IMG/VR virus record: IMGVR_UViG_3300045988_096244
DNA: 64,000 nucleotides
Direction: 5' to 3' (one strand)
Source of the DNA: a virus
Shown here: positions 17,334-57,382 of the stretch, in pieces
Layout of the letters: each line of letters starts with the position of its first letter
Numbering within the stretch: the first letter of the stretch is position 1
Made by a program: the position numbers and the translations under genes
The notes under the pieces: model-generated
Database searches by the model: none
The model's input: the letters and a program-made list of their open reading frames with translations, nothing else
What the model was told of the DNA's origin: nothing

Positions 17334-17425
17334 CAAGATGAATCTTTACTTTGCGCTGTGGACCGCGAGTCCTGATTCACCCCGGGTATCAGACTGTAGG
17401 GATATAGACTGATACCCATTTTTAT

Positions 17426-17500: not shown

Positions 17501-17655
17501 CAAGGGCTATATGCTGGGTCATAACCGGAGATACGACCTCCAGCTAGCAATGGGCAATAACCCGGTACGAGATACCAAAAGCTCATAATTAAAGTCGAAG
17601 GCTATAGCTCTAGGAGATGAGCGAAGAACAGTACCTCATCTCCCCTTTTGTAAAG

Positions 17656-17738
17656 GCTCGGATGGAGAAATAGGTAAACTCATCAGATTTAAGCTCTGAC
17701 GGTCATTGACCTTGCGGGTTCGATTCCCGCTCCGAGTA
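17656..17738 (+). tRNA. tRNA-Leu (anticodon TAA), class II with long variable arm
   Basis: Acceptor gctcgga/tccgagt (G1-U72 wobble), anticodon stem tcaga/tctga with loop ttTAAgc, variable arm ggtcattgacc, T arm gcgggttcgattcccgc. Confidence 0.8.
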
Positions 17739-17753
17739 CAAAATACCCTTAAC

Positions 17754-21590: not shown

Positions 21591-21664
21591 GTAGAAATGG
21601 GGTATATGATTTATCAGTTATGAACTGTCATCAATTTGTGGCTAATAATATCTTAAATCACAAT
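21551..21664 (+). mobile_element. split intein, C-terminal half (IntC, 38 aa)
   Basis: MYKEVGITQVKFVGRNGVYDLSVMNCHQFVANNILNHN ends in the H-N splice junction and is followed by Ser. It has its own ATG, preceded by AAGGAGGT at 21537-21544. Confidence 0.75.
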
Positions 21665-27003: not shown

Positions 27004-27649
27004 ATATCAAATTATGTTTACAGGTGTTTCCGGAGTAGGGAAAACAACCATTGCAAAGGAAGTATCGGAAATGTTGAAGATACCCTTTATATCTGGTTCA
27101 TACTCTGACCTGGTACCAGAAACAAAAGACATGCCCCACGCTGACATGATTCAGCAGGATGCAAAGACAGTATTCATGCAGGATATGCAGGTACTCAATC
27201 TTCGTAACAAAGCCTTTCGAGGGGAGGATAACTTTGTAACTGACAGGTCATACTTTGACTCTGCAGCATACTTCATCAATAAGTTATCTCATAGGTTGGC
27301 AGAGTGTGACCTGGACCATGCTATAGACTTATGCAAAATGCTACTTGGTCAACAGTGTACTCACTTGATATTCATACCATTCTCCTCAAGCTTTTTCAAG
27401 GACTGGGTAACCGAGGATAACGGGAAACGAGTACTGTCAAAGTACTATCAGTTCCAAGTTTCTCAGGTTATGTATGGATTACTTGACCTGTGGGGGTACA
27501 AGCCAGATTCCAAAGTAATGCAAGTCGTGGATGGAATACCAAGTACTGGTACTCTGGAAATAATGGGTTACAAGGTAAAGGTTCTCATATTAGATGAGAT
27601 GAACTACGAAAAGAGAAAGCATCTAATAAGGAAATTTCTTCAGTTATGA
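26990..27649 (+). CDS. P-loop NTPase, nucleotide-kinase-like
   Basis: An N-terminal Walker A (FTGVSGVGKTTIAKEV) at the very start of a roughly 220-aa protein, as in (d)NMP kinases. Specificity unknown. Confidence 0.4.
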   Translation: MYNGKYQIMFTGVSGVGKTTIAKEVSEMLKIPFISGSYSDLVPETKDMPHADMIQQDAKTVFMQDMQVLNLRNKAFRGEDNFVTDRSYFDSAAYFINKLSHRLAECDLDHAIDLCKMLLGQQCTHLIFIPFSSSFFKDWVTEDNGKRVLSKYYQFQVSQVMYGLLDLWGYKPDSKVMQVVDGIPSTGTLEIMGYKVKVLILDEMNYEKRKHLIRKFLQL

Positions 27650-44247: not shown

Positions 44248-44327
44248 GTGTTACTAAACTAAACTTACCTTTATAAGGATTAAAATCTCTAGAACCTATT
44301 CCTACTGCCTGATGCCGAGAAGTTTTA

Positions 44328-44359
44328 TTTGCATATTAAAAATATTATTGCTATATTTG
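44328..44359 (+). promoter_or_regulatory. Bacteroidota-type promoter (TTTG-N20-TAtaTTTG)
   Basis: TTTG at 44328-44331 and TATATTTG at 44352-44359 (ctatatttgtataaag). Confidence 0.65.
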
Positions 44360-44393
44360 TATAAAGATAAAAATAAACCTTAAATATAATACC

Positions 44394-44598
44394 ATGGAAA
44401 AGAAAAAGATTAAGGACTTAGCAAAAGGGGAATACTTTATTCTGAATCCCCTCGAAGAATCCCAATGCCTCTCAAGTCTGGGTAAGAGGAGAATACATCA
44501 GGGAAGCTAAGAAATACAGTACCTACAAATGAGAGGACACTAATCATGAAACTCTCAGGAAAGGAGACAAGGAAGTTTACATAGGTTTTACCTTTTAA
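44394..44598 (+). pseudogene. small gene disrupted by a +1 frameshift and an in-frame TGA
   Basis: Frame A reads MEKKKIKDLAKGEYFILNP..., stopping at 44508. The +1 frame continues ...SKNPNASQVWVRGEYIREAKKYSTYK*EDTNHETLRKGDKEVYIGFTF (TGA at 44530-44532, final TAA at 44596-44598). The frames meet at a CCCC run (44448-44451). Confidence 0.5.
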
Positions 44599-44609
44599 CA
44601 CTTACAACT

Positions 44610-44840
44610 ATGGCACAGCAGAAAAGGTACAAATTGCTCATTTGGTTCTATCTCCACAATCACCTTCACAAAAGTATTCATGCTGCACATAGCATGGAGG
44701 TAGAACTAACCCGGAAAACTGAAGTTAGTGAATGGGTAGATGAGAATGATGAGAGTATTGCAAAAGCATACCTCATTGACCGGGTTAAAGATACCCGAGA
44801 AACGGTAATAGAAAGAAATATTGAACGAACAATATACTAA
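44610..44840 (+). CDS. hypothetical protein
   Basis: Track ORF. Confidence 0.4.
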   Translation: MAQQKRYKLLIWFYLHNHLHKSIHAAHSMEVELTRKTEVSEWVDENDESIAKAYLIDRVKDTRETVIERNIERTIY

Positions 44841-44851
44841 AACTAAAGATT

Positions 44852-45070
44852 ATGAGTTACACAGTAGAAGACCTGATTGGAGCTCTAGAAGAAATGGACC
44901 CTCAGGCACCAGTAATGGTAGCAGTACAACCCATATGGCCATTTGAACACAGTATCACTGGTGTTATCAATGCTCAGAATGGGACGGTATACCTTGCATC
45001 AAAACAGGAAGGTTATTTACCCCCAGAAGCTAAAGAAGCTTTCGAAGAAAACGGTATCCCTTTTTTCTAA
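44852..45070 (+). CDS. hypothetical protein
   Basis: Track ORF. Confidence 0.45.
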   Translation: MSYTVEDLIGALEEMDPQAPVMVAVQPIWPFEHSITGVINAQNGTVYLASKQEGYLPPEAKEAFEENGIPFF

Positions 45071-45093
45071 CCTCATCTGACCTCTGATTTATA

Positions 45094-45125
45094 TTTGCAA
45101 ATATAGATTAAATTCATTATATTTG
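45094..45125 (+). promoter_or_regulatory. Bacteroidota-type promoter (TTTG-N20-TAtaTTTG)
   Basis: TTTG at 45094-45097 and TATATTTG at 45118-45125. Confidence 0.65.
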
Positions 45126-45155
45126 TAATATAGAAAAGAAATAAAATCGAATATT

Positions 45156-45512
45156 ATGAAAGATTACAAAAAGGTATTGCTGGATGGGTTAAGGAAGTCG
45201 AGCAATGTTCAAGAAGAAGAGAGGGATTGCATTAAAGAAGCAATTAAAGAAACCTACCTTGGTATGGTAAAAGAGTTGGATGCCCGATTAGGGTTAGAAC
45301 TCTTTGATTATCGGGTAGAAGTAAGATACTACTCTGATGGAATCCCGGAAAGGTTCAAACATACTCTCTGGGTTAAATTCTCGGATGAGACCATGCCCAA
45401 GATGTCTTTCAGAGGGGCAATGCAACAGGTGGTATCTATCCTCTCAACTGGAGAGGATGAAGTAAAGATTATCAGTCATAACACTGGACTCAAAATCGAG
45501 ATAGTAGCATGA
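45156..45512 (+). CDS. hypothetical protein
   Basis: Track ORF downstream of a promoter. Confidence 0.45.
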   Translation: MKDYKKVLLDGLRKSSNVQEEERDCIKEAIKETYLGMVKELDARLGLELFDYRVEVRYYSDGIPERFKHTLWVKFSDETMPKMSFRGAMQQVVSILSTGEDEVKIISHNTGLKIEIVA

Positions 45513-45697
45513 GTGCATTCAATAAGATACAAAGAGAATACAACTGGGTATGCAAGCATATCAAAGGTCCTTTGTATAGAATAAAGATGCAAGAGCTATA
45601 CAATGAGGCTAATAAAGCTATCCTCGACCCAAAGTTAACTCCAGAACAGAAATTAAAACTAATCGGTATCAGAGATACATTAAAGACAAAACTATGA
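45509..45697 (+). CDS. hypothetical protein
   Basis: Track ORF with 4-nt overlaps on both sides. Confidence 0.4.
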   Translation: MSAFNKIQREYNWVCKHIKGPLYRIKMQELYNEANKAILDPKLTPEQKLKLIGIRDTLKTKL

Positions 45698-45984
45698 AAA
45701 AGAAAGAAGAACAAGGGTGCTTAAGGCCCCTACTGATAGCTATCGTATTAGTATTGGTAGCGACGATTTGGTACCAGATATCCTACCAAAGTGAGGAAAA
45801 GAAAGAGCCCGAGACAAGGCAATTAGTAAATCCCGACGGGAGCCTAAAATTTGAAGCAGTTCAAAGATTGGCTCCCGATTATATTGATAGCCTCAAAAGA
45901 GCCGGTGAAATTGAGAGATGGTTAAAAGAACACCCTCAGCAAAACCTTAATATTCATATAACCATCGAAGACGAACGCTGGTAA
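45694..45984 (+). CDS. hypothetical membrane-anchored protein
   Basis: Track ORF with an N-terminal TM segment (LRPLLIAIVLVLVATIWYQI). Confidence 0.45.
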   Translation: MKKKEEQGCLRPLLIAIVLVLVATIWYQISYQSEEKKEPETRQLVNPDGSLKFEAVQRLAPDYIDSLKRAGEIERWLKEHPQQNLNIHITIEDERW

Positions 45985-46040
45985 AGGCCGTTAATATTTG
46001 TATAAAGAGAAATAAATATAAACCATAAATTTAATAAGCC

Positions 46041-46262
46041 ATGATTAAACAAACTCATAAACCTATTCAATTAACCAAATCAATGTTAATTAATATACTT
46101 AGAGATATGGAGGCTAAACACTTAAAAAGTGCTACCATATACGACTATGATTCAGAGGAACATGTAATCCTATCAATAGAGGAGATTAAATACTTAATCG
46201 ACTTACCTCAACAGAATTACCGTATACTCCCCGCAGAGTACAACCCTAATAAACTCAGCTAA
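46041..46262 (+). CDS. hypothetical protein
   Basis: Track ORF. Confidence 0.4.
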   Translation: MIKQTHKPIQLTKSMLINILRDMEAKHLKSATIYDYDSEEHVILSIEEIKYLIDLPQQNYRILPAEYNPNKLS

Positions 46263-46264
46263 TC

Positions 46265-46423
46265 ATGAAAACACAATCAGATCTTCATTTATACCTCTTG
46301 AAGAAAGTTCACGGATGGTGCAAAAGACAAGGCATGACAGACCCCCGAAATGTATTTCCTTCAATAGGAGGATGCACCTCATTTTGCAACGGAGAACGCT
46401 TCCAACAAAAGAACAGAAAATGA
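46265..46423 (+). CDS. small hypothetical protein (52 aa)
   Basis: Below the track cutoff. Its TGA overlaps the next ATG (ATGA at 46420-46423). Confidence 0.35.
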   Translation: MKTQSDLHLYLLKKVHGWCKRQGMTDPRNVFPSIGGCTSFCNGERFQQKNRK

Positions 46424-46752
46424 AACAAGAAGAATCTAGAGAGTTAAGGAATCTCTCCATGAATCAACTCAATGCAAAGTTATCTGAACTCTATAAGGAA
46501 CTTCCGAGAAGGAATCCTAAGTACTCTTTCGAAAGACCTTACAGGAATCATCTCCTAAGGCAAATCAACCAAATCAAATACGAACAAACCCTTAAAGGAA
46601 AGGGGTTAAGGTCACAAGGAGTCTGGATAGAATCAGGATACACTCACCAAGGAACCAAGTCAGGAAGATTCTCTTCAGGATATCACTCCTCAGAATTATC
46701 CCTATCCAACCCCCCAAAAGAAGTTCTACCCCCAACACAAATAAAACCATGA
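46420..46752 (+). CDS. hypothetical protein
   Basis: Track ORF 46315.. trimmed to ATG 46420 (MKQEESRELRNLS...), which forms an ATGA overlap with the upstream small ORF. Confidence 0.4.
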   Translation: MKQEESRELRNLSMNQLNAKLSELYKELPRRNPKYSFERPYRNHLLRQINQIKYEQTLKGKGLRSQGVWIESGYTHQGTKSGRFSSGYHSSELSLSNPPKEVLPPTQIKP

Positions 46753-46898
46753 AAAGAAAACCTAAAACCATATCCAAGGAAAAGGCCATAGTCATAGCCT
46801 CCAACCATAACAACCTCCCAATCCAAATCGCAAAGGGATATACAGAATCCGAACTAAGGGAAGTATTAAGGCATCTGAACCTAAAGCCAGGCTTCTAA
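46749..46898 (+). CDS. small hypothetical protein (49 aa)
   Basis: Below the track cutoff, with an ATGA overlap at 46749-46752. Sequence MKRKPKTISKEKAIVIASNHNNLPIQIAKGYTESELREVLRHLNLKPGF. Confidence 0.35.
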   Translation: MKRKPKTISKEKAIVIASNHNNLPIQIAKGYTESELREVLRHLNLKPGF

Positions 46899-47749
46899 TA
46901 CAACCCCCAAACAAGAATAAATTCAAATATCCATATACATAACCATAATATATACATCATACCTATAGAATATTCATAAGGTAATATACATATAATATAA
47001 ACCATCAATCATATATGGCTTTTAGGATTAGCTTTTATCTTAGAAGCCTTTAGTTTGACTGTTAAGATAGGGCAAAAGTTAACAAGCAGTCATTGTGACA
47101 GGTCAGGACAACGAAAAAGTCCAAGGGCCATAAAATCAGGTTAGGGCAAATTTTTTGGTTAAGGCAATATTAGGGCCTTACGGTGTACCCTAAGAGCTCT
47201 GGAGCTATCTATGTTACTATACGTATTAGCTAAGTCGACTTAGGGCCCTAAGACCAGGAACAAGGTCCTAAAAGCACCTTTAAGGTACCTAAACCCCTAC
47301 CTTATTCAAGTCTATATATATATATATAATATAAGTATATTAAGGATAAGGCTTAAGGCAGTAGCTAAGGCCTTTTCGATAAAGAGACATTAGGCCCCCC
47401 TGACTCTTGATATCTACAGCTTGACTCTATATTCATATTGGTACACTGATGGTACCTAAGATGGGCCTTAATCCCAAGCCTTAAAGAGTACAATCTATAT
47501 TATATATATATATATGCGAGTCTTTTAGGTCATTTTGGAACAGGTGTCTAAAATCGATATGCCAGGAATAGAGTATTGGAGATTTGATTTCTCAAGTTAA
47601 GGCTGGTTTAAGGCACATTTAGGGTACCTTAAAAGGCCTTTTTGTGGTAGGTTAAGGTACCTTAATATAGCCTTCATATTATATAAGGATTGGCTTTTAG
47701 TGGCCTTTGGGATTATGGCCTTGGGCCTTATGAAGGCCTCCAATTATTA
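46899..47749. repeat. gene-free tract dense in TTARGG/CCYTAA half-sites, perfect palindromes and two (TA)n runs
   Basis: No ORF of 60 aa or more on either strand. By eye there are roughly two dozen TTAAGG/TTAGGG-type motifs. Perfect palindromes are CTTAGGGCCCTAAG (47239-47252) and TTAAGGTACCTTAA (47652-47665). (TA)n runs lie near 47313-47330 and 47497-47515. Confidence 0.8.
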
Positions 47750-47781
47750 TTTGCATATATAATATATTATATCTATATTTG
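47750..47781 (+). promoter_or_regulatory. Bacteroidota-type promoter (TTTG-N20-TAtaTTTG), copy 1 of a duplicated 57-bp cassette
   Basis: TTTG at 47750-47753 and TATATTTG at 47774-47781. It lies inside the 47725-47781 repeat. Confidence 0.7.
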
Positions 47782-47823
47782 CATAACGAAAGATAAATAA
47801 TAAACTCTAAAACATTTAAGGCT

Positions 47824-48048
47824 ATGCTTAATTATAAAGACTTCACCACTGCCCTGGGAATTATCTCCAAACACCATTCAACCGAATTGGCCATCAATAC
47901 TCCTCGCAATAACTTTGTAGGGTATATGGGCCAGACTAGATTCAGGTTGCATATTAAGAAATGCGTACCCGCCGTAATCCATAACCTTGTTAAGGAAGGT
48001 TTCATATTAAGTATGGGACCTGAAGGATTAGAGGTAGATAAAATCTAG
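47824..48048 (+). CDS. hypothetical protein
   Basis: Track ORF downstream of a consensus promoter. Confidence 0.45.
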   Translation: MLNYKDFTTALGIISKHHSTELAINTPRNNFVGYMGQTRFRLHIKKCVPAVIHNLVKEGFILSMGPEGLEVDKI

Positions 48049-48072
48049 CCTTATGAAGGCCTCCAATTATTA

Positions 48073-48104
48073 TTTGCATATATAATATATTATATCTATA
48101 TTTG
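48073..48104 (+). promoter_or_regulatory. Bacteroidota-type promoter, copy 2 of the duplicated 57-bp cassette
   Basis: TTTG at 48073-48076 and TATATTTG at 48097-48104. 48048-48104 is identical to 47725-47781. Confidence 0.7.
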
Positions 48105-48115
48105 TAATGCAGTAA

Positions 48116-48151
48116 AACAAATTAAACCAATTAAACAAATTAAACAAATTA
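48116..48151 (+). repeat. 4 x 9-bp tandem repeat (AACAAATTA) in the 5' leader
   Basis: aacaaatta / aaccaatta / aacaaatta / aacaaatta, immediately before ATG 48156. Confidence 0.9.
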
Positions 48152-48155
48152 AATT

Positions 48156-48443
48156 ATGAATTACTCGGTACACTCTTTTAAGGTTTATATTTATAAGGTT
48201 AATCCTGATAGTTGGATTATTAGGGCCTTGGAAAATAACGGATATAACCTAGATAACTGTCTCGAATTGGATTACCTGGCGGGGTTTATTGTAATCGAGG
48301 TATATAGGGATGATTTCGATTGGGTATGCGAACTCCTGGATTATACTGAGAACCCGGATAACACCAGGGAACAGCTGCTCGAGTTTTATAACTATGCTCG
48401 GACAGAGTATAAGGACCTGGAAGGTTATCCGGAATATATTTAG
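48156..48443 (+). CDS. hypothetical acidic protein
   Basis: Track ORF downstream of a promoter, followed by two hairpins. Confidence 0.45.
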   Translation: MNYSVHSFKVYIYKVNPDSWIIRALENNGYNLDNCLELDYLAGFIVIEVYRDDFDWVCELLDYTENPDNTREQLLEFYNYARTEYKDLEGYPEYI

Positions 48444-48501
48444 GGTATGGGTGGGGGTTGGCCCACCCATTTACCCATTTGCTTTCATATTTCTTTCTGT
48501 T

Positions 48502-48528
48502 AAGGCCTGCCAACCCAGGCCTTTTTTA
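48502..48528 (+). terminator. rho-independent terminator
   Basis: aaggcctg (48502-48509) pairs with caggcctt (48516-48523), followed by tttttt. An additional hairpin, atgggtggg/cccacccat, lies at 48447-48470. Confidence 0.75.
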
Positions 48529-49064
48529 TTTATGAACTTATAAGGCCTTTAAGGATTCAATAAAGGTACCTTCTGGCACCCAATAAGGCCTTATACCTTA
48601 GGCATATTGGTAAGGCCTTATATCGCTTTTAGTGGCTTGGCTTATAGGCCTTTTATAATAGGCTGTATTGGTACCTAATGGTGCCTTGCCAAAGGACCTT
48701 TACTAAATTTCCTTTCAATCGGAATTAAATGAAAGGTGTAATTTAATGCAAGCAGGGGTATATCATAGAAGTTTATAATTAACAAGCTGGAGAATTAGTT
48801 ATTTATAAAATAAAAATATTCTAGATTCCTGAGGACTAAGGCCGAAAATTGAAATGAACATTAAAGGCCTAATCCAAGGAGTTAAGGTACCTCGGGGTGC
48901 TAGCTAAGGCTAAGTTTTAATTCAACCTTATACCAACAAACCTTCATGCTAACCAACACCATTAAACCCACTTACCCAATTCCTTACCCCAACTCCTTAA
49001 TAAGCATAAATTATCGTAATTCGTTCTATTATAGGAAAAGATAATCAAAATTGATGCTTAAAAT
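48529..49064. repeat. second gene-free tract with TAAGGCC / AAGGTACC motifs
   Basis: No ORF of 60 aa or more. Palindromes are ATAAGGCCTTAT (48583-48594) and TAAGGCCTTA (48611-48620), with many half-sites. The 12-mer gcttttagtggc is shared with 47693-47704. Confidence 0.7.
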
Positions 49065-49095
49065 TTTGTAATTAAAAATATTATTTGTATATTTG
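49065..49095 (+). promoter_or_regulatory. Bacteroidota-type promoter (TTTG-N19-TAtaTTTG)
   Basis: TTTG at 49065-49068 and TATATTTG at 49088-49095. Confidence 0.65.
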
Positions 49096-49153
49096 TATAT
49101 CTGGAAACAGAAAGAACTAACAAAAATTAAATTAATTAAAATTTTTTACTACT

Positions 49154-49498
49154 ATGAAAGCAAATGAAATTTTAGCAATCGGAAACGAAATTTTTTCAAC
49201 CAGTGAAAGAAAATCAATTTATCGCAAAGAAATTTTTGTAGAGTGTAAAACAGACAAAGAAAAAAAGAATTTACGAATGAAGATACGCAAAAAATTAGAT
49301 GCTTTTATCGTTGAATTTATTGCAACCGCTAAAAATGAGGAAAAAAGAAAAGCATTGAGAAAAGCGTGGCAAGAATATGCAAAGCAAGTCTATATTAACG
49401 TAAATAGTATTGTAGATTCTAACGCAAATACAGAAAAAAGGGACACAATTAAAAATTTCCTGCTTGCAATGAACGAAACCGAAAAGAAAAATAAATAA
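49154..49498 (+). CDS. hypothetical Lys-rich protein (very AT-rich cassette)
   Basis: Track ORF. By eye its composition is much more A/T-rich than the neighbouring genes. Confidence 0.45.
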   Translation: MKANEILAIGNEIFSTSERKSIYRKEIFVECKTDKEKKNLRMKIRKKLDAFIVEFIATAKNEEKRKALRKAWQEYAKQVYINVNSIVDSNANTEKRDTIKNFLLAMNETEKKNK

Positions 49499-49524
49499 AA
49501 TTAAACCCATTAAAATTTAAAGTT

Positions 49525-49878
49525 ATGTTACTTAATTTTCAAAAGGTAGAGGATATAAAAAAAGTATTAGACAACTTAACCTCCAATGAAAAATTAGAAT
49601 TAGCAAATAATATTTTTATAGGTCGTAATCAATCCGATTTCCTCGATAGCAAAGGAAATTTTTTTGAGGAGTTAGATAAAGAAACAGACATAAATAATTT
49701 CTATGAGGAAATAAATAATATTTTTATAAAAATTTATAACAATCATAAAAAAGTAGAAAAATACTTAATTCGAAAATTACAGGAGTCGTATAGATATTTT
49801 GATATAGATGAAAAAGATATAGATAAAATTGACCTACAATATTTAGACGACAGATGCGCCGAAATTTTCGAATATTAA
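49525..49878 (+). CDS. hypothetical acidic Asn/Ile/Lys-rich protein (very AT-rich cassette)
   Basis: Track ORF, followed by a strong terminator. Confidence 0.45.
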   Translation: MLLNFQKVEDIKKVLDNLTSNEKLELANNIFIGRNQSDFLDSKGNFFEELDKETDINNFYEEINNIFIKIYNNHKKVEKYLIRKLQESYRYFDIDEKDIDKIDLQYLDDRCAEIFEY

Positions 49879-49896
49879 AAATAAAATATTAAAAAT

Positions 49897-49927
49897 AAAT
49901 AGGGGACATATTATGTCCCCTATTTTT
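49897..49927 (+). terminator. rho-independent terminator (29-nt perfect palindrome)
   Basis: aaataggggacata-t-tatgtcccctattt (49897-49925), followed by a T-run. Confidence 0.75.
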
Positions 49928-50614
49928 AATAAAATTTAATTTTGCGATAGGGACACCGTGGCCCCTTTTTACTGTCAGATGTTTTTGAAGACCTCATGAT
50001 AAGACTCTTTAAGGTACCAAAACCTTTTTACTGCTAGCCCCTTAGGCTCCTCGTGATAAGCTCTTCCTGAAAGGCCCATACCACATAGGTACATATCCAT
50101 TACCTAATCACCCCCTCTCCCTACACAAAATGAAGAACCCATCCAAAGGCCCTTCATAAAATTTTTCCAGGATATTTTTAAGGCTCCCATTATAAGGACT
50201 TCCCATACACCTTTGCCTCATAAACCTTAATCAATTTATCAAAGGCCTTAATCCTGGATTCAGTATCAAACCTATCCCCCAATAAATATCATGGATAGAA
50301 AGGTTATCACTAAGGTTCTTATAGACCCCCTGTATTCTTATCACCACCCAAGAAATCAAACCAGAATGCAAAATATTCCAAATATAAATAACTCACCTAA
50401 TATTTGAAGATATTTTCTAGAAGTGTTGCCTAAGATTGAAAGGACAAGCCCTGTTATTCCTATTAAGGAAGTAAATCATAGTAATTTACTTTTAATCCAT
50501 AAACCATATAGCTATGAGTTTCCTTATGTTTCACTCGGGTAATATACCTATAATTGAAGAAGATGATATGAAGTTAGTAGAGTTAGTTATTAAGAACAAC
50601 AATCAAGGGGGGTT

Positions 50615-50893
50615 TTGATTGTTGTTTCTAATTCAGTAGTTACCTCTAGTATTGCCTCTGACCTTATGTACGGCCATATTGATGGGGTAAAGCTAAAGTG
50701 TTTGAACCAAGCACACAATAATAATTTTCTGATTATCATACCAGACGTATTTGTGAATATGGAGGTAGAGGGTGTTAATTTATACTTACCTAACAATGTC
50801 TTATTCTTAAATGATGAAGGTACCCAAAAATTAGTCAAGATAATATGTTACCAAGACGGTGACCAGGAGTTCCAAACGGCAGCCACTATGTAG
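50615..50893 (+). CDS. hypothetical protein (start uncertain: TTG 50615 or ATG 50666)
   Basis: The plus-strand track ORF looks more protein-like than the overlapping minus ORF 50590..50838. It ends just before a bidirectional hairpin. Confidence 0.35.
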   Translation: MIVVSNSVVTSSIASDLMYGHIDGVKLKCLNQAHNNNFLIIIPDVFVNMEVEGVNLYLPNNVLFLNDEGTQKLVKIICYQDGDQEFQTAATM

Positions 50894-52400: not shown

Positions 52401-52964
52401 TTATTCAACTTCCTTTAAGTATTCAGCTATAATAGGATCTTCACCTCGTATAATCTTACGTAAAGGACGGTAACTTTTAACTTTGAATTTAGATTGAAGT
52501 TGTTTAGTAGTCCAATTAGGATGTTTTTGATAGAATTTATAAATCTTTATCTTGAGTTCGTTGCTATATTTAGATTTTGGATGTTTATCTCCGAATACTC
52601 TATAATAAGGGTTTTTATCTCCTCGTTTATCCCCCGGCTTCATTCTACCCTCTCTCACAGCTTTTTCAGTATTTTCTTTGGGTGTACACCAATATAGGTT
52701 ACTTACCCTATTATTTAGGGGGTTATTATCCTTATGACCCACATAAGGTTTATTATATTTGTTAGGTATATGAACTTTTGCTACTAACCTTGAAACCGAA
52801 CGTATTCCTCCTCTAAAATAAAAATAAGCTCGACGGTATTTATGATTCTTGGATAAACTGTGGTATATCCTTAACTGTACCCAATTATTATTCCTTAACT
52901 CAAAGATATCACCGTCAACACTTACATATAATCCGGGCATCCAGGGAACATTCTCTTTCATCAT
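52401..52964 (-). CDS. HNH homing endonuclease (HNH_3), paralog 4
   Basis: RLVAKVHIPNKYNKPYVGHKDNNPLNNRVSNLYWCTPKENTEKAVREGR aligns with the other three paralogs. Confidence 0.7.
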   Translation of the reverse strand: MMKENVPWMPGLYVSVDGDIFELRNNNWVQLRIYHSLSKNHKYRRAYFYFRGGIRSVSRLVAKVHIPNKYNKPYVGHKDNNPLNNRVSNLYWCTPKENTEKAVREGRMKPGDKRGDKNPYYRVFGDKHPKSKYSNELKIKIYKFYQKHPNWTTKQLQSKFKVKSYRPLRKIIRGEDPIIAEYLKEVE

Positions 52965-53040: not shown

Positions 53041-54033
53041 ATGAATGTTTTAGGTGTCTGTGGAGCTCAAGGAGCTCTGTTATTTGAGTTTAAAGAGCAT
53101 CTTGTAGCCAATGTAGAGCCAAGAGCTGTGTTTCACTCCAAAAAAGAAGAGCAATGGAAGCTCAATTTTGGCAATATACCCTTTGTAAGGAGCCTTGAAG
53201 AGGTCAAAAACACCAAAATTGACCTAATACTCGGTTCTCCCTCATGTGGTCATAGCTCTGTATTCTCCTATTCGAGGAAAAAATCCTTGGGAAAACCCCG
53301 AGAAGATGCCACCCTTAATTTATATCTTTCTAGTATAAAGAAGTTCAAACCAGCAATATTTATGCTGGAGAACCTCCCTAAGCTTCTAGATTTTATTCCT
53401 ATCGGGGAATGGGAGCATAATTTACCCGATTATAAATTTATAGTTCACTGTCACTCCGTTTCGGTATTCGGTAATTCCCAACAAAGTAGGAAACGTATGG
53501 TATTGATAGGGGTGCGTAAAGATTCTAAAGTTAATCCCGACCTCTTTACTCATACTTTCAAAGTAAGTAAGTTGAAGAATCTATGTGAACTAAAGAAAGA
53601 AGTACGTAGAGATATAAATTACAGAGAAGCGGATGATAAGAAGTTGGCAATGTACCATTATGCAGATAAGTCAAAAACTACTCTAACTGTAGCTCAAGTG
53701 AGAAAGTTATGGAGAACTGAGTTTAAGAATGATTATAAATGGCCAATGAGAACTCAGAAGATGAAGACTCTTCCAGGAGTATACCGTAATAGAAAAAGAA
53801 GTTATCCCTTAACCGTTAGACCATCTTCAAGGCAATTCAATCCTCATGGAAGGATTATGGGCCTTGAAGAGTATAGGGTTATAATGGGCTTTCCTAAAAA
53901 CTTTAAGGTATACTTCGATAAGGCTAATCCAACCTACTGGTTAAATAAGGGAAGGAATACCTTAACCAAGGGGACTGTATATGAAATCTCACTATGGATT
54001 AAGACTTGTCTGAAGAAAGCGGATCTGATTTGA
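53041..54033 (+). CDS. DNA (cytosine-5)-methyltransferase-like protein, divergent motifs
   Basis: By eye: motif IV-like LGSPSCGHS (SPSC instead of PPC), motif VI ENLPKL, motif VIII QQSRKRMVLIG, motif IX-like LEEYRVIMGFPKNFKV. Motif I is atypical (LGVCGAQG). Confidence 0.55.
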   Translation: MNVLGVCGAQGALLFEFKEHLVANVEPRAVFHSKKEEQWKLNFGNIPFVRSLEEVKNTKIDLILGSPSCGHSSVFSYSRKKSLGKPREDATLNLYLSSIKKFKPAIFMLENLPKLLDFIPIGEWEHNLPDYKFIVHCHSVSVFGNSQQSRKRMVLIGVRKDSKVNPDLFTHTFKVSKLKNLCELKKEVRRDINYREADDKKLAMYHYADKSKTTLTVAQVRKLWRTEFKNDYKWPMRTQKMKTLPGVYRNRKRSYPLTVRPSSRQFNPHGRIMGLEEYRVIMGFPKNFKVYFDKANPTYWLNKGRNTLTKGTVYEISLWIKTCLKKADLI

Positions 54034-54387: not shown

Positions 54388-55047
54388 ATGAAAAATGTAA
54401 TCCTAACCTTAGCCTTTATATTTATGGCCTTAACCATATTCTGGCTATGGAACCGAAATTCGGAATTAAAGGAAGGTATTAAAAATTCTACCGAGCAACC
54501 TGATACCGTTTGGGTTAATAAACCTTTTACAGCAAAGGTAGAATTTCCAAATTTTAAGTTGCCCAAGATGGTATTCCTCTATCAGATAGATTCAGTACCT
54601 ATTGAACGTATTGAATATGTTGATAGAGTAGTTACTATCATTCAGAAAGATTCAACCAAGATTGAATACAATGAGTTATTTCTAACTAACTATCCAAAGG
54701 CTCCAAAGTTATTGCAGATACTTTCAAATCGAGATAAGCTATCTATCACTACATTCAATACAGACTGTAGATTAGCTACAGAAGAATATAAGGTCAACTA
54801 TTCTCGGTATCAGTATAATTACCTGGATGGGAAATTAACCTATAAGAAAACACCTTTCCTTAAAAGATTCAATCCAGTGATTCAATATACCTTACGACCA
54901 GTACATAACTTCCATGATTTAGATTTCGGCCTGAAGTACAATACCAGTAAATTTAATTATGAGGCTGGGTTGAATATCAACTATTATCCCAAACTTCGGG
55001 ACAATTTAGGTCTCGACCCATACCTAAGAATTTCATACAATTTCTAA
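54388..55047 (+). CDS. secreted/outer-membrane-like protein (signal peptide, C-terminal ...LRISYNF)
   Basis: N-terminal hydrophobic signal-like segment MKNVILTLAFIFMALTIFWLW. Tyr/Asn-rich alternating strands end in a terminal Phe, as in beta-barrel OMP beta-signals. It sits 1 nt upstream of terL. Confidence 0.4.
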   Translation: MKNVILTLAFIFMALTIFWLWNRNSELKEGIKNSTEQPDTVWVNKPFTAKVEFPNFKLPKMVFLYQIDSVPIERIEYVDRVVTIIQKDSTKIEYNELFLTNYPKAPKLLQILSNRDKLSITTFNTDCRLATEEYKVNYSRYQYNYLDGKLTYKKTPFLKRFNPVIQYTLRPVHNFHDLDFGLKYNTSKFNYEAGLNINYYPKLRDNLGLDPYLRISYNF

Positions 55048-55048: not shown

Positions 55049-57382
55049 ATGGCAAGAAAGAAGACATTAGTTGAAGATGCAAGTCTTACACCCGAACAAC
55101 TTAAGACCTTGGTTCGGGTGATGAAAGACCCGTTCTTCTTCTCTACTTTCTGCTACGTGATTAACCCCGTATTGGGTATGGTAAAGTTCCTCCTTTATCC
55201 TTTTCAGAAAGCGGTTCTTTACCAATTCATGCTCAATAGGTTCAATATCATCCTAAAGTTTCGTCAGGCTGGTATTACTGAGCTAATCTCTCTCTACTGT
55301 CTTTGGTTAGCAATGTATCATCCTAACAAGAAGATAAACATTATCTCAATCAAGGACACTGTAGCAAAGAAGGTACTGAAGAAGATTAAGTTCATGTACA
55401 AGAATCTTCCTTCATATCTGCAAGAGCCAATTATAAATGGTCGTGCAGGGGAGTTTGGTTCTGTATCAACTATAGAGTTTGCAAACGGTTCAGTTATTGA
55501 ATCTATACCAACATCTGACCAAGCTGGTCGTTCTGAATCTTTGTCGTTATTAGTGATTGATGAGGCAGCTATTGTTAGATGGGCTTCAACTATTTGGGCC
55601 TCAGCTTTCCCTACTCTATCAACCGGTGGTGCTGCTATAGTAAACTCTTGTATTACGGGAGATACCCAGATTATTGGCAAGGATGGTCCTTTTAGGGTTG
55701 ATTCTATTTGTCCCAAAACTTTTGGTAAGATGGATATATCACATCTTGGACTGAGAGTATTATCACATACTGGAAAGTGGCAGAGAGTACTTGGTTCTGT
55801 AAATAAGGGTGTACTTAAAACTTGGGAAGTTCACAATGAGCAAGGTAGGGTTATTAAATGTACTCCAAAACATAAGTTGTATACTCTTGAAGGTTGGTTA
55901 CCTGTTTCAGAGATAATCAAACGAGATATACCTGCTATCTTTTATCATACTGGTATAAGTGGTCTGGAGCAGAATCCAGTAACCGTAAAACCCAAGAAAA
56001 AGATATGTGTCCACAATCTGGTGGCTAAAGTATTCTTGGGAGAAATTCCTGATGGGTATGTAGTTGACCACATCAATAATAACCCATCTGACAACTATGT
56101 AACCAATCTTCAGATAGTTACAGTAGCTGAAAATGGTCAGAAAGCTGCAAAACATTCTTATGGGATGAAGCTTGGGTCCAAATTGAAAGGTGGATTCAAC
56201 TACGACTTAAGAGTGGTGGCTTACATAAGATACCGTTATCAAGAGCTTGGTTACTATTATGGAGTGTTAGAGAAGATATCTAAAGAGGTTGAAAGTAAGT
56301 TCGGAGTTAAGCTGAACAAACCTTACATTCAACGCATTGTATCTGGTAAACGTGGTACGAGTATCTACCTTTCTAAACTGAAAGTAGTTAGAAAATATTA
56401 CGATACCATTTATGATATTTGCGTTGAAAATGATGAATCTTACCTCATCAACGAAGACTACGTGTCTCATAACACCCCTTATGGTGTAGGTAACTTCTTC
56501 CACGGTACTTGGGTAGATGCCATATCTGGAGGTAATCCCTTTAATCCCATACGTTTGTATTGGCAGATGCACCCAGACAGAGATGAGAAGTGGTATGAAG
56601 AGATGTCTGCTGCACTTGGTCCTAAAAGAACTGCTCAGGAGATAGATGGTGACTTTTTATCATCTGGTAACACGGTATTCGATTTAGCTGACATCAAAGC
56701 TATTGAGGAATGTTTATTCGACTATCCAGTTATCAACACTCGTCTGAAAGGCCAATACAAGGAGTTCAATGAGCCAGACCCAAATAAGGAATACTTCATT
56801 GGTGGAGACTGTGCTACTGGACGAGGTACTGACTACTCTGCTTTTACTTGTATGGACCGGGATGGTGAAGAAGCTGCAGTATACAAGGGTAGAATACCTT
56901 TGAATAAGTATGCCCGTTTACTGGGTGATATTGGAGAGAAGTATAACTTTGCTAAGTTAGCTCCTGAGACCAATGACGTTGGTATGACAGTGACCACCAT
57001 ACTTCAGGATGAAGGTTATCCAAACCTTTACTTCTATACCAAGCTTCTCAGGAAGAAGCGTAAGAATAGACCTGAAGAAGACAAGTTCCCTGGTTGGTTG
57101 ACCACAACAAAAAACAGGTCTGTAATTATAGAGAACTTGGAGAAGGACATACGGGAGGAAAACGTAATTGTGAAAGACCCGTTCTTTGTACAAGAAGCTT
57201 ACACATTTATCTATGATGGTACAGGAAGACCCATTGCTAGAGGTAAGCATAGAATGAACAACTCATCAATGGACCTTGATTTGGAAGGTGAGACATACTC
57301 TGATGATGCTATCTTCGGGAAAGCTATTACAAACCATATTAGGTGTCACAGTGCATCTAACACTGTAGTTATTCCACAGTAG
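55049..57382 (+). CDS. terL: terminase large subunit, interrupted by an in-frame intein
   Basis: Walker B LLVIDEAA. The extein junction IVNS|TPYGVGNFFHGTW restores a terminase coupling motif. The C-terminal nuclease-domain region is present. The gene sits immediately upstream of the portal gene. Confidence 0.8.
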   Translation: MARKKTLVEDASLTPEQLKTLVRVMKDPFFFSTFCYVINPVLGMVKFLLYPFQKAVLYQFMLNRFNIILKFRQAGITELISLYCLWLAMYHPNKKINIISIKDTVAKKVLKKIKFMYKNLPSYLQEPIINGRAGEFGSVSTIEFANGSVIESIPTSDQAGRSESLSLLVIDEAAIVRWASTIWASAFPTLSTGGAAIVNSCITGDTQIIGKDGPFRVDSICPKTFGKMDISHLGLRVLSHTGKWQRVLGSVNKGVLKTWEVHNEQGRVIKCTPKHKLYTLEGWLPVSEIIKRDIPAIFYHTGISGLEQNPVTVKPKKKICVHNLVAKVFLGEIPDGYVVDHINNNPSDNYVTNLQIVTVAENGQKAAKHSYGMKLGSKLKGGFNYDLRVVAYIRYRYQELGYYYGVLEKISKEVESKFGVKLNKPYIQRIVSGKRGTSIYLSKLKVVRKYYDTIYDICVENDESYLINEDYVSHNTPYGVGNFFHGTWVDAISGGNPFNPIRLYWQMHPDRDEKWYEEMSAALGPKRTAQEIDGDFLSSGNTVFDLADIKAIEECLFDYPVINTRLKGQYKEFNEPDPNKEYFIGGDCATGRGTDYSAFTCMDRDGEEAAVYKGRIPLNKYARLLGDIGEKYNFAKLAPETNDVGMTVTTILQDEGYPNLYFYTKLLRKKRKNRPEEDKFPGWLTTTKNRSVIIENLEKDIREENVIVKDPFFVQEAYTFIYDGTGRPIARGKHRMNNSSMDLDLEGETYSDDAIFGKAITNHIRCHSASNTVVIPQ
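55649..56473 (+). mobile_element. intein (275 aa) with an HNH endonuclease insert in TerL
   Basis: It starts CITGDTQIIGKDGPF (block A), then CTPKHKLYT (block B), and ends DICVENDESYLINEDYVSHN followed by Thr. The internal HNLVAKVFLGEIPDGYVVDHINNNPSDNYVTNLQIVTVAEN is an HNH core. Confidence 0.8.

Follow-up and report, generated by a model that had tools for sequence, protein, structure and literature searches.

Origin E (oriE) of bacteriophage T4 has evenly spaced 12-nt iterons, whose role is unproven, depends on an early promoter and is a site where transcription switches strands (PMC3016281). TP228 parH/OF contains 20 ACTC boxes in mixed orientation, which are bound by ParG (PMC3130281). PeSL cassettes of the T4 type yield mini-circles by recombination (PMC2839356). 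For the proposed family Flandersviridae, Benler et al. suggested that the phages may persist as extrachromosomal circles; partition genes were not found (PMC8008677).

The window analysed here is a 64-kb stretch of DNA from an uncultured phage of the human gut, with a genome of roughly 77–80 kb, Bacteroidota-type promoters and a gene layout similar to that of the Flandersviridae. The phage codes for DnaB, DnaG, PolA, a gp32-like SSB, a RecA/UvsX-like recombinase and SbcCD, and its terminase is most similar to T4 gp17 (E about 1e-20). The three largest gaps of the window containing no ORF of at least 60 aa (46814–47823, 48544–49153 and 49879–50589) all fall within 46.8–50.6 kb. They correspond to the three gene-free tracts delimited by a first-pass annotation (46899–47749, 48529–49064 and 49928–50513; tracts 1–3), with the sole exception of positions 48529–48543, covered by the last part of a 77-aa ORF, which overlaps a 95-aa ORF (48156–48443). 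As at T4 oriE, early-type promoters, located by a promoter scan, surround the tracts and a plus-to-minus strand switch coincides with them. The region is best explained as a conserved, cis-acting DNA element that is not transcribed, and we tentatively consider tract 1 to be an iteron-type replication origin or unwinding element comparable to oriE. The features of tract 1 are, from left to right:

46899–47016: AT-rich, poorly conserved spacer with no ORF, after the stop codon of a 49-aa ORF (46749–46898)
47017–47048, plus strand: hairpin with a 12-bp stem and then a T-rich tail, a terminator-like insulator on the tract's left border
47068–47180, plus strand: left box cluster, with TARGG starting at 47068, 47142, 47160 and 47171
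47181–47256: near-invariant block, almost every column at least 97% conserved in 30 sequences, with palindromes AGAGCTCT (47193–47200), GTCGAC (47234–47239) and CTTAGGGCCCTAAG (47239–47252)
47295–47372: first composite, with minus-oriented boxes at 47295 and 47300, (TA)n run 1 and plus-oriented boxes at 47341, 47347, 47354 and 47366
47466–47515: left half of the second composite, with minus-oriented boxes at 47466 and 47479, then (TA)n run 2
47516–47597: most conserved block of tract 1 (mean identity 0.93–0.96)
47597–47642, plus strand: iteron-like array of four tandem 11-bp units, [G/T]TTA[A/G]GG[C/T]NNN
47652–47665: perfect palindrome TTAAGGTACCTTAA, to the right of the 11-bp array
47725–47781, plus strand: 57-bp cassette, stem-loop GGCCTTATGAAGGCC and host-type early promoter TTTG-N20-TATATTTG

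The hairpin at the left edge is near-invariant among 30 sequences and has a folding energy of −15.7 kcal/mol (z = −4.3), with none of 200 shuffles equally stable. The left cluster, in which the boxes at 47160 and 47171 are 11 bp apart, is variable among relatives. The block 47181–47256 also carries the inverted pair CCCTAAG...CTTAGGG, and its RNA fold is no improvement over shuffles. Within 47516–47597, the core GGTGTCTAAAATCGATATGCCAGGAATAGAG (47543–47573) is almost invariant; this exact 31-mer has matches in 96 stretches from metagenomes and 47 from IMG/VR. The same block has stops in all frames and no preserved ORF, and its RNA folding z-scores are +0.5 and +1.4. The 11-bp unit pattern occurs three times against 0.15 expected. 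Some relatives are short of exactly one unit of the array, and A and G are near 50 : 50 at its R position; from about 47640 rightwards, the sequences of relatives diverge into alternative versions. The 57-bp cassette resembles the T4-type PeSL cassettes (PMC2839356) and has an identical copy at 48048–48104 and a 68% identical one at 44303–44359. In relatives, stop codons break the small ORFs of tract 1, and no host-type −7 promoter element (TAnnTTT[G/A]) occurs on either strand between 46800 and 47773. The GC skew goes with the orientation of the genes and adds no separate indication of an origin, and the tracts contain no DnaA box.

On both strands, TTARGG is present 19 times in the 1-kb bin 47001–48000 versus 0–3 times in most other bins. 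Compared with 500 dinucleotide-preserving shuffles per tract, the TTARGG, AAGGCC and AAGGTACC boxes of the tracts are 5- to 30-fold enriched. Tract 1 has 17 TTARGG (3.2 expected; reached by none of the 500 shuffles), 10 AAGGCC (0.8 expected) and six AGGTACC (0.2 expected). Tract 2 is enriched in AAGGCC (nine versus 0.8) and AGGTACC (five versus 0.0) and shows no enrichment in TTARGG (three versus 2.5). Enrichment is weak in tract 3, with four AAGGCC (0.4 expected) and five TTARGG (2.0 expected; reached by 28 of 500 shuffles). The tracts had been described as packed with TTARGG half-sites and related motifs, by eye roughly two dozen in the first one. Box enrichment holds even against shuffles of each tract; tracts 2 and 3 are better described by other words than TTARGG, and the number applies to the looser core TARGG (26 in tract 1) rather than to TTARGG. 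The top words of an unbiased k-mer comparison are AAGGCC, TAAGGC, TTAAGG, AAGGCCTT (six versus 0) and AAGGTACC (eight versus one), and (T)TA(A/G)GG with CC or TACC after it is therefore a better notation for the box common to them.

The tracts exceed not only the shuffle background but also the other non-coding gaps of the window: TARGG reaches 18–29 per kb in the three tracts versus 5–8 in those gaps, and AGGCC 4–12 per tract versus 0. Outside 44–55 kb, all but one of the extended boxes lie inside ORFs, so the boxes are not a promoter element. Terminator stems and the 57-bp cassette account for some of the AAGGCC signal. Some boxes stand alone, others form direct repeats spaced by about one helical turn, and others again pair into palindromes whose centre is 0 or 2 bp. 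A small DNA-binding protein that dimerises or oligomerises and coats one face of the DNA would be expected to have sites in such a pattern.

Tract 1 could be aligned end to end in 29 distinct relatives (78–92% identity). Its best blocks (identity 0.93–0.96) are at the level of the terminase gene, neighbouring genes being at about 0.8, and 47150–47600 is retained in 44–48 of 54 relatives, more than the surrounding genes. The motifs singled out by the first-pass annotation are maintained in related phages: all 30 sequences keep 18–24 boxes per roughly 585 bp. Neighbouring boxes on the same strand show a spacing peak at 11–13 bp, A and G often replace each other at the R position among relatives, and the GG positions are the least variable (0.06–0.14 versus a regional mean of 0.19). 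Box positions overall are no more conserved than non-box positions (Mann–Whitney p = 0.99), and their phylogenetic footprint is modest. Judging from these comparisons, the boxes are real and selected, because they are enriched, are kept at 18–24 per sequence, toggle between A and G, have a preferred spacing and vary in the array by one whole unit.

The two (TA)n runs (run 1, 47313–47333; run 2, 47496–47515) form a 20-nt inverted repeat, 100% complementary, with 162 nt between the arms. They had been noticed as bracketing about 170 bp and likened to a DNA-unwinding element, and duplex stability agrees with this: run 1 is the least stable 20-bp and 40-bp duplex of the whole window, and run 2 the third least stable 20-bp duplex. 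Each run has two minus-oriented boxes on its left and three or four plus-oriented boxes on its right; the box at 47466 is present in 30 of 30 relatives. On the plus strand of the window, CCYTA-N(4-18)-(TA)n occurs only at these two runs. The tracts of distant relatives cannot be aligned with those of the window. In five of eight such loci (L117, L056 and L059–L061), CCYTA-(TA)n is found once per 20-kb locus at the syntenic position, and AGGCC is the top enriched word of the distant relatives except in L115, where AGGTACC is enriched instead. The composite of boxes and (TA)n is thus deeply conserved.

Tracts 2 and 3 and the genes next to them have the following features:

47824–48048, plus strand: 74-aa ORF of no known function, between tracts 1 and 2
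48156–48443, plus strand: 95-aa ORF of no known function, between tracts 1 and 2
48450–48523, plus strand: two hairpins, 3' of the 95-aa ORF
48537–48670: box cluster of tract 2, with palindromes ATAAGGCCTTAT (48583–48594) and TAAGGCCTTA (48611–48620)
48835–48912, plus strand: further conserved boxes of tract 2, CTAAGGCCGAAAA..., AAAGGCC, TTAAGGTACC and GCTAAGGC
49065–49095, plus strand: host-type promoter (promoter scan)
49154–49498, plus strand: basic, helical 114-aa ORF
49897–49925: hairpin with a 13-bp stem and T-runs on both sides, terminator-like in both directions
49935–50035: near-invariant 100-nt block of tract 3
50104–50260: conserved part of tract 3 with AAGGCC and GGCCTT boxes

The four palindromes reported in the first pass, two in tract 1 and two in tract 2, were all recovered at the coordinates given there. 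The second hairpin 3' of the 95-aa ORF (48502–48523), AAGGCCTG-ccaacc-CAGGCCTT with TTTTTT after it, is a terminator, and the AAGGCC box makes up its stem. The block 48611–48660, which includes TATATCGCTT, is invariant in 36 sequences, and two distant relatives, L117 and L056, also have TATATCGCTT in their tracts. The hairpin at 49897–49925, matched on the minus strand in a scan for terminators, its plus-strand T-run being read from the sequence, stands where plus genes (last ORF ending at 49878) meet minus genes (first ORF 50590–50838). In the block 49935–50035, CCTTTTTACTG is present twice, at a distance of about 59 nt, together with a single AAGGTACC box; the covariation term of this block, −0.07 (19 sequences), does not support an RNA structure. 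A possible 37-aa minus-strand ORF (50108–50221) overlaps 50104–50260. Tracts 2 and 3 are mixed: besides conserved blocks bearing the same boxes, they contain ordinary terminators and also promoter cassettes, which stand between small genes that can be swapped.

The gene cassettes between the tracts vary from relative to relative, and only some relatives carry the small genes adjoining tract 1. About 37 of 54 relatives match the sequence covering the 74-aa ORF; for the 95-aa ORF, a variable cassette, the number is about 10 of 54. None of the neighbouring ORFs (49, 74, 95, 114 and 145 aa) has a significant family or fold match. The 114-aa ORF lies directly downstream of the non-coding tracts both in the window and in the relatives examined; its 190 homologues include none with a Pfam domain or functional name, and its AF2 model is helical (pLDDT 68) and gave no match in a fold search. 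No initiator or other box-binding protein was identified.

RNA structure, promoter and Rfam family all fail to fit, and the element is therefore considered to act as DNA. This agrees with the general view of the first-pass annotation, a conserved non-coding cis region at the DNA level with half-sites, palindromes and (TA)n, and no RNA signal. Among the roles then listed, an origin with iterons fits best, with phased 11-bp repeats beside the least stable DNA of the window; the suggested analogy with the T7 terminal repeat is weakened by the gp17-like terminase, read-through assemblies and scattered contig ends (see below). Against an origin, boxes extend over 3.6 kb in three tracts, beyond the needs of a single origin, some are mere terminator stems or parts of promoter cassettes, and the clustering of relatives' contig ends in tract 1 could point to a physical DNA end. 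An R-loop of the T4 oriF/oriG type is a poor fit because the strong flanking promoter is directed away from the (TA)n runs.

An operator or centromere-type array, its boxes coated by a small phage protein (e.g. ribbon-helix-helix or winged-helix), is rather unlikely, and much the same can be said of its supposed role in early-promoter control or in a partition or silencing complex of a plasmid-like carrier state. Degenerate direct and inverted boxes with AT-rich spacers and a spacing near the helical turn match plasmid centromeres and operators, and share their grammar with TP228 parH/OF (PMC3130281). Arrays occur directly upstream of strong early promoters (47750, 48073 and 49065), although the main arrays are 100–700 bp from promoters and not over them. 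Small conserved ORFs without known function flank the array, and the extrachromosomal persistence suggested for Flandersviridae (PMC8008677) would suit such a state; however, ParA, ParM and ParB homologues and recognisable repressors are absent among about 56 ORFs scanned. The (TA)n composites and the long box-free invariant blocks are not accounted for by such an array.

Repeated boxes are found in the pac site of SPP1, and short-repeat arrays adjoin the terminal repeat of T7. That the tracts are likewise a packaging-initiation or genome-end region, with arrays binding the small terminase and a first or fixed cut in or beside tract 1, is in our view unlikely. Wrapping by an oligomeric small terminase would suit phased short repeats and palindromes, and the terminase genes are 7 kb downstream on the same strand, but a terminase of the T4 gp17 type implies headful packaging without a unique site. 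Tract 1 has more than its share of the contig ends of relatives, and five independent contigs or loci end within 25 nt (equivalent to 47625–47650 of the window), among them a 76.8-kb contig whose ends abut (47643 and 47669) and share a short GGCCTTT(T)A; the source contigs of loci L130 and L187 are 75.9 and 79.5 kb long. The ends nevertheless scatter, with no single-nucleotide pile-up, and the cluster at 47640 is the point where relatives change sequence. Other clusters fall exactly at both (TA)n runs, where Nextera adapter is attached in some cases, and also at the promoter that is repeated, which is the usual effect of low-complexity sequence and repeats on assemblies. Eight of 12 full-length IMG/VR contigs are assembled here without a break and have their ends at other places, two genome lengths are contained in one contig of 156 kb, and (TA)n runs are no known feature of pac or cos.

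It is quite improbable that the tracts contain no dedicated element and are regulatory debris of a hyperplastic region, made of terminator stems, PeSL-like stem-loop-plus-promoter cassettes and recombination linkers between swappable small genes, with AAGGCC merely a preferred stem sequence. AAGGCC does make the stems of the 48502–48523 terminator and of the 57-bp cassette, which is repeated at 47725 and 48048 and, with 68% identity, at 44303. Gene cassettes between the tracts differ between relatives, and contig L133 fuses 47781 to 44360 via the promoter, the expected product of cassette recombination. Tract 1, however, has 700 bp with zero promoters and one terminator, arrays of tandem or isolated boxes rather than hairpins, and invariant blocks that do not fold; it is kept in more relatives (44–48 of 54 for 47150–47600) than the surrounding genes, and AGGCC is wholly absent from the other intergenic gaps of the phage.

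Non-coding RNAs, such as a protein sponge with repeated UAAGG motifs, are highly improbable: repeated short motifs are a feature of CsrB-type sponge RNAs, and tract 3, between the terminator-like hairpin and the minus-strand genes, is probably transcribed and has a possible plus-strand −7 element at 49937, but the boxes occur on both strands and in palindromes, an Rfam search gave no match near the gathering score, conserved blocks fold no better than shuffles (z-scores −0.95 to +1.4), tract 3 lacks covariation and tract 1 has no promoter on either strand.

Should tract 1 be an origin or unwinding element of the iteron type, a protein encoded by the phage would fill the box arrays and strain the flanking (TA)n DNA open, and the opened DNA would let the DnaB-type helicase and DnaG primase of the phage load. 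With the conserved terminator to its left and early promoters to its right, the element would be insulated yet early-active, as in the proposal for T4 oriE. Within this scheme, we infer the binding of a protein, its identity and the initiation of replication. The tract region is about 2 kb of conserved, non-translated DNA, and for the phage it is probably a protein-binding control site.

The window covers the greater part of the genome of a human-gut phage that has not been cultured. Its gene order runs from the end of a structural block (baseplate, endolysin) through a DnaB-like helicase, a DnaG primase and a family-A DNA polymerase to a gp32-like SSB, a RecA/UvsX-like recombinase, a 5'-3' exonuclease, SbcCD and RusA. 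Next come about 15 kb of small ORFs without an assignment, and after them a C5-methyltransferase, the terminase, the portal, the protease and the major capsid protein. The Bacteroidota promoter consensus TTTG-N17-21-TAnnTTTG has 13 matches in the whole window (2.0 expected), eight of them on the plus strand between 37.6 and 49.1 kb. Among solved structures, the large terminase is closest to T4 and RB49 gp17 (E = 8e-21).

The proposed family 'Flandersviridae' is recognized by a structural block followed by DnaB, DnaG and PolA and then by about 20 kb of unassigned ORFs, together with a T4/Ackermann-like TerL and a Bacteroides-type host. Its published description gives a median genome of 85 kb and a locus of about 20 kb, at this part of the genome, composed of ORFs without recognizable function (PMC8008677). 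Compared with that description, the layout of the present phage agrees in gene order, T4-like TerL and promoters; the genomes of its relatives measure 76-82 kb, against the family median of 85 kb. There are only two relatives in GenBank, both uncharacterized, and well over 100 in IMG/VR and public metagenomes. No literature was found on the GenBank relative MT121964, and a search of a genome collection for host or prophage context returned just three mis-binned MAG contigs.

The small terminase is encoded at 54388-55047. The large terminase ORF (55049-57382, 777 aa) has T4 gp17-like N- and C-terminal parts, interrupted both by a Hint/intein-like segment at about residues 201-295 (Spl DnaX mini-intein, E = 2.6e-5) and by an HNH endonuclease domain (residues 316-446); the insert resembles an intein that contains a homing endonuclease. 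The family-A polymerase is apparently split into ORFs 19064-20632 and 21551-22699, between which lies an ORF with a DUF559 endonuclease-like domain (20610-21590); insertion of a homing endonuclease or an intron may account for the split. Several HNH endonucleases are encoded (27646-28962, 7885-8412 and 52401-52964): one is fused to the N-terminus of an SbcD-like nuclease, another lies between the helicase and primase genes, and a third, matched in only about 6-7 of 54 relatives, adjoins the tract region. Three tRNA genes (Met-CAT, Pro-TGG and Leu-TAA; 17260-17739) are located inside the replication module.

Three ORF-poor tracts are the subject of the analysis below. They carry boxes, short repeated motifs with the core TARGG (R = A or G), which are called plus or minus according to the strand on which they read. 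The features of the region are as follows.

44303-44359, third copy of a 57-bp promoter unit
46749-46898, 49-aa ORF
about 46899-47749, tract 1, non-coding
47006-47050, near-invariant block of tract 1
47181-47256, near-invariant block of tract 1
47295 and 47300, minus strand, boxes left of (TA)n run 1
47313-47333, (TA)n run 1
47341-47366, plus strand, boxes right of run 1
47362-47390, near-invariant block of tract 1
47466 and 47479, minus strand, boxes left of (TA)n run 2
47496-47515, (TA)n run 2
47516-47597, near-invariant block of tract 1 (82 nt)
47598-47620, plus strand, boxes right of run 2
47725-47781 and 48048-48104, identical copies of the 57-bp promoter unit
47824-48048, 74-aa ORF
48156-48443, 95-aa ORF
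48502-48523, terminator, stem built from AAGGCC
about 48529-49064, tract 2, non-coding
49154-49498, 114-aa ORF
about 49928-50513, tract 3, non-coding

The first-pass annotation had described these tracts as gene-free DNA packed with TTARGG half-sites, palindromes and (TA)n runs. In the 64 kb, the three longest gaps between ORFs of at least 60 aa are indeed 46814-47823, 48544-49153 and 49879-50589, and the palindromes and (TA)n runs are present where they had been placed. TTARGG is dense in the first tract, with 19 copies in the 47-48 kb bin versus 0-3 in most other bins. Its enrichment beyond composition, judged against dinucleotide-preserving shuffles, is clear for tract 1 (17 TTARGG versus 3.2 expected, and 10 AAGGCC versus 0.8); tract 2 is enriched in AAGGCC and AGGTACC and not in TTARGG, and tract 3 is weakly enriched. 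Unbiased word counts gave 26 copies of AAGGCC in 2.36 kb of tract DNA versus 34 in 53 kb elsewhere; other top enriched words are TAAGGC, TTAAGG, AAGGCCTT (6 versus 0) and AAGGTACC (8 versus 1). There are 18-29 TARGG per kb in the three tracts versus 5-8 in the other non-coding gaps of the phage, and AGGCC, found 4-12 times in each tract, is absent from those gaps. As a consensus, (T)TA(A/G)GG with CC or TACC after it describes the box best.

Depletion of GGCC from genes through restriction-site avoidance was rejected as the source of this enrichment, because GGCC is not depleted genome-wide (116 versus 88 expected). A role as a general promoter motif for middle or late genes was also discarded: outside 44-55 kb, extended boxes occur at a chance-like frequency and lie within ORFs in all cases except one. 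Over the whole window, CCGG is likewise not depleted (131 versus 88 expected), and other 4-mers are rare (GATC 14 versus about 220, GCGC 12 versus 88, CGCG 3 versus 88 and CTAG 63 versus 220), a pattern that suggests restriction avoidance. The C5-methyltransferase is encoded at 53041-54033, and a sequence search for a PDB relative that might indicate its specificity found none.

There are 18-24 boxes per ~585 bp in all 30 sequences. TAAGG and TAGGG exchange freely at single sites (for example 15:14 and 18:12), and GG is the least variable part of the box (0.06-0.14 versus a regional mean of 0.19); the box positions, when pooled, show no significant excess of conservation over the remainder of tract 1. 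In the 30 sequences, boxes adjacent on one strand are most often 11, 12 or 13 bp apart. The array at 47597-47642 is composed of four tandem 11-bp units, of which exactly one is missing in some relatives, and provides the at least three direct repeats in helical phase that are typical of iterons. A second 11-bp pair is found at 47159-47175. The pattern of 11-bp-spaced pairs occurs three times in the window versus 0.15 expected, always in tract 1.

Tract 1 was aligned over its full length in 29 distinct relatives, with 78-92% identity. It is not protein-coding, as the first reading had it: there are stops in all frames and every small ORF is interrupted in relatives. The same evidence eliminates an alternative genetic code or hidden small genes. 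Conservation is uneven, and the near-invariant blocks reach 0.93-0.96 identity (50-nt windows), equal to the terminase gene; the small genes beside tract 1 are matched in only some of 54 relatives. The block at 47006-47050 is a hairpin (folding z = -4.3), and the block at 47516-47597 holds a 31-mer almost invariant in 30 sequences, which retrieved 96 metagenome stretches and 47 IMG/VR stretches in an exact-match search. The long invariant blocks contain few boxes. Similar conserved islands are present in tract 2 (48611-48660) and tract 3 (49935-50035).

No match to tract 1 was found in the INPHARED phage collection or PLSDB at blastn sensitivity, and both GenBank relatives lack it, except for about 60 nt at the start of MT121964.1. 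This 75.5-kb record (L001/L002 in our set of stretches from related contigs) starts at the window-equivalent position 47616 and ends at 44387; it is therefore an incomplete genome, probably without some 3.2 kb in which most of tract 1 would lie. Just beyond tract 3, a 34-aa ORF (50514-50618) is stop-free in 44 relative loci, with ~54% identity, and may be a real small gene. Between tracts 2 and 3, a segment of 25% G+C holds a 117-aa ORF (49525-49878). Only about 2 of 54 relatives have a match to this segment, which has the look of a cassette gained recently.

By nearest-neighbour energies, (TA)n runs 1 and 2 are the first and third least stable 20-bp duplexes of the window, and run 1 is also its least stable 40-bp duplex; they give the boxes the adjacent AT-rich, candidate unwinding element that is expected of an iteron-type origin. 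Each run has two minus boxes to its left and plus boxes to its right, those of run 2 lying beyond the 82-nt invariant block. The plus-strand composite CCYTA-N(4-18)-(TA)n occurs in the window solely at these two runs. A third (TA)n run (5745-5785), the second least stable 20-bp duplex, is situated directly upstream of the start codon of the DnaB-like helicase.

Eight loci from distant relatives, with 53-66% protein identity in anchor genes, were checked for comparable tracts. ORF-free tracts are found at the syntenic spot, upstream of the homologue of the 114-aa ORF. They have no nucleotide homology to tract 1 detectable by nhmmer, and a five-way alignment of them was too noisy for use. AGGCC, TAGGCC or AGGTACC are again among their top enriched words, and in five of the eight 20-kb loci (L117, L056 and L059-L061) the box-plus-(TA)n composite has a single occurrence, located in the ORF-free tract. 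The syntenic non-coding tract of L117 (8450-8670) also carries, besides AGGCC-type boxes, a repeat of its own, TTCAGG[C/T]ACCGA-like. This repeat suggests boxes specific to a lineage, which may co-vary with a protein that binds them.

We conclude that the region is probably a DNA-level, protein-binding cis-element. That tract 1 is an iteron-type origin or unwinding element is a tentative reading, for which the odds are somewhat less than even. A phage protein would fill the phased boxes of tract 1, this would open the flanking (TA)n DNA, and the DnaB/DnaG machinery would then load. Iteron-type plasmid and phage origins, like the SV40-type core origin, combine short initiator boxes, direct or inverted, with an adjacent AT-rich segment that melts first. 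Here, too, short boxes in direct and inverted orientation adjoin an AT-rich, easily melted segment. Classical iterons are 17-22 bp long with the Rep gene adjacent, whereas in tract 1 the specific core is 5-8 bp in an 11-bp unit and no Rep-like gene was found.

The search for a binder among about 56 ORFs scanned gave no recognizable Rep-like, origin-binding, ParA/ParB-like or repressor-like protein, many ORFs being without an assignment. Pfam and PHROGs gave no significant family for the flanking ORFs of 49, 74, 95, 114 and 145 aa, a Myb-like match to one flanking ORF (E = 0.046) being below threshold. For the 74-aa ORF, the AF2 model (pLDDT 76) gave the DNA-binding domain of T4 MotA as its top Foldseek matches (E = 0.2-0.7, TM = 0.36), a predicted likeness that is not significant and serves as a lead, not as evidence. 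The AF2 model of the 114-aa ORF is helical and has no fold match.

The closest parallel that has been described is T4 oriE, which has 12-nt repeats at even spacing, needs an early promoter and is situated close to a strand switch, its iteron role being unproven (PMC3016281). In both elements, short direct repeats recur at an even spacing of about one helical turn; small early genes surround them, early promoters of host type are adjacent, and transcription changes strand nearby. The two phages also share a terminase of T4 type, a gp32-like SSB and a recombinase like UvsX/RecA (PMC3016281). However, the box sequence is unrelated, palindromes are present here and two (TA)n runs have boxes at their sides; the element extends over about 0.7 kb, more tracts follow it, and no homologue was recognized of repEA or repEB, the small early genes of the oriE region. 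An R-loop arrangement like that of T4 oriF and oriG, with a promoter reading into the unwinding element, is not seen: there is no host-type -7 element on either strand at 46800-47773, and the 47750 promoter is directed away from the (TA)n runs. An origin based on DnaA boxes was rejected, since the stretch from 44.1 to 51.0 kb has no TTATCCACA-like site (at most one mismatch). Perfect DnaA boxes occur at two places, 99-107 and 1096-1104, and DnaA-like sites overall are at chance level.

In overall look, the nearest parallel is the untranslated repeat regions of the T5 terminal repeat. In the 'injection stop signal' (iss) region of the T5 left terminal repeat, as in the present tracts, untranslated DNA with ordered repeats and palindromes is better conserved than the neighbouring ORFs; the T5 regions lie inside a 10-kb terminal repeat, contain eight paired DnaA boxes and have a hypothesized function (bioRxiv 10.1101/866236). 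The tracts here differ in lacking DnaA boxes, paired ones included, in having no terminal repeat shown and in belonging to a phage with a T4-like terminase. T7 has non-coding arrays of short repeats, with a unit of ~7 bp, next to its terminal repeat, and the first-pass annotation had offered them as an analogue. The resemblance lies in ~7-bp repeat arrays in non-coding DNA; the boxes here are on both strands and include palindromes, and the comparison with the T7 terminal repeat is weakened, no T7-like terminase or defined terminal repeat having been found.

An operator or centromere-type array is an unlikely alternative to an origin. The tract arrays have the short boxes in direct and inverted orientation that a centromere would have, and they resemble the ParG-bound parH/OF sites of plasmid TP228, in which degenerate boxes of 4-7 bp, in either orientation, are separated by AT-rich spacers and function tolerates changes in box number (PMC3130281), as box number varies among relatives here. 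Against this, no partition ATPase or other partition NTPase, ribbon-helix-helix or centromere-binding gene was recognized in the window, about 14 kb of the genome lying outside it, and Benler et al. found no partition genes in Flandersviridae (PMC8008677). The (TA)n composites and long invariant blocks are also absent from plasmid centromeres.

That tract 1 is a packaging-initiation site, with a possible cut near 47.64 kb, is slightly more doubtful still. Contigs of relatives frequently end in tract 1. Their ends cluster at both (TA)n runs, at the repeated promoter, where the variable left box cluster has its edge (47173-47192), and at 47625-47650. The last of these positions is the stopping point of five contigs or loci, among them a 76.8-kb contig whose two ends abut there; this cluster coincides with the point where relatives switch to alternative sequences. 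On the other hand, the ends are spread over (TA)n runs, repeats and the variable junction, a pile-up on one nucleotide was never seen among the relatives, and most full-length IMG/VR contigs run through the tract region, 8 of 12 ending elsewhere. A 37-mer from one end of the 76.8-kb contig has a single exact occurrence in it, so that contig has no long terminal repeat, and the assemblies gave no sign of one around the tracts. The closeness of the terminase to T4/RB49 gp17, a rough proxy for packaging mode, does not point to a fixed-end type. The end pattern is consistent with an assembly map that is circular or permuted, with local difficulties in assembly. Untrimmed Nextera transposase adapter is present at contig ends of L079, L093, L147, L151, L156, L178 and L208, some of them at (TA)n runs, and ODLK01000008.1 (L158, L181; 155,969 nt) contains two copies of the invariant 31-mer and represents two genome lengths head to tail.

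We consider it improbable that the tracts are regulatory debris of a hyperplastic region. The 57-bp unit consists of the stem-loop GGCCTTATGAAGGCC and a strong early promoter; 47725-47781 and 48048-48104 carry it in 100% identical form, and the third copy has 68% identity. With the terminator stem built from AAGGCC, these promoter cassettes resemble the PeSL (promoter-early stem-loop) cassettes in hyperplastic regions of T4-type phages, in which a repeated stem-loop and promoter lie amid swappable small ORFs (PMC2839356); the small genes between the tracts are likewise cassettes differing among relatives, and one contig has a cassette-recombination junction. The likeness accounts for the three 57-bp cassettes but not for the box arrays, (TA)n composites and invariant blocks. 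The junction, present in this single contig (L133, OLNQ01017747.1, 2854 nt), passes via the promoter from 47437-47811 into 44360-46622 and continues into 46901-47199. It joins the module end at 47781 to its start at 44360, with the crossover inside the repeated early promoter, which indicates a mini-circle or tandem duplication of the 3.4-kb tract-1 module, or an assembly loop.

A non-coding RNA made from the tracts is very improbable, since structured RNA was ruled out by Rfam scan (sole match in the region a snoRNA model, E = 0.12, under its gathering score), by single-sequence folding (conserved blocks no better than shuffles, z -0.95 to +1.4) and by alignment folding (no covariation in tract 3, covariation term -0.07).

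The element is real, conserved and previously undescribed, and it belongs to an abundant uncultured phage lineage; such phages, so far without a cultured member, belong to the most common ones of the human gut. A cis-element of this kind yields a consensus for the box, the 11-bp array, the two composites of box and (TA)n, and a near-invariant 31-mer that picks out about 100 metagenome contigs. It thus gives a handle for a binder search, for plasmid tests of an origin or packaging function in Bacteroides, for tracking the lineage in metagenomes and for explaining the assembly breaks at this locus. If its function is ordinary, the result is a useful annotation and no new principle. In a wider reading, which we regard as a long shot, the tracts would form a replication-and-maintenance locus, with an origin whose firing would be controlled by a phage protein, and possibly also by the C5-methyltransferase acting on the clustered boxes that contain GGCC, and with arrays doubling as a centromere-like site. 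Its module of about 3.4 kb (44360-47781) could then also exist as a self-contained mini-circle. Benler et al. suspected a carrier state of Flandersviridae and could tie no gene to it (PMC8008677); if this reading is true, the locus would let the phage persist in that state, as a circular episome in Bacteroides.
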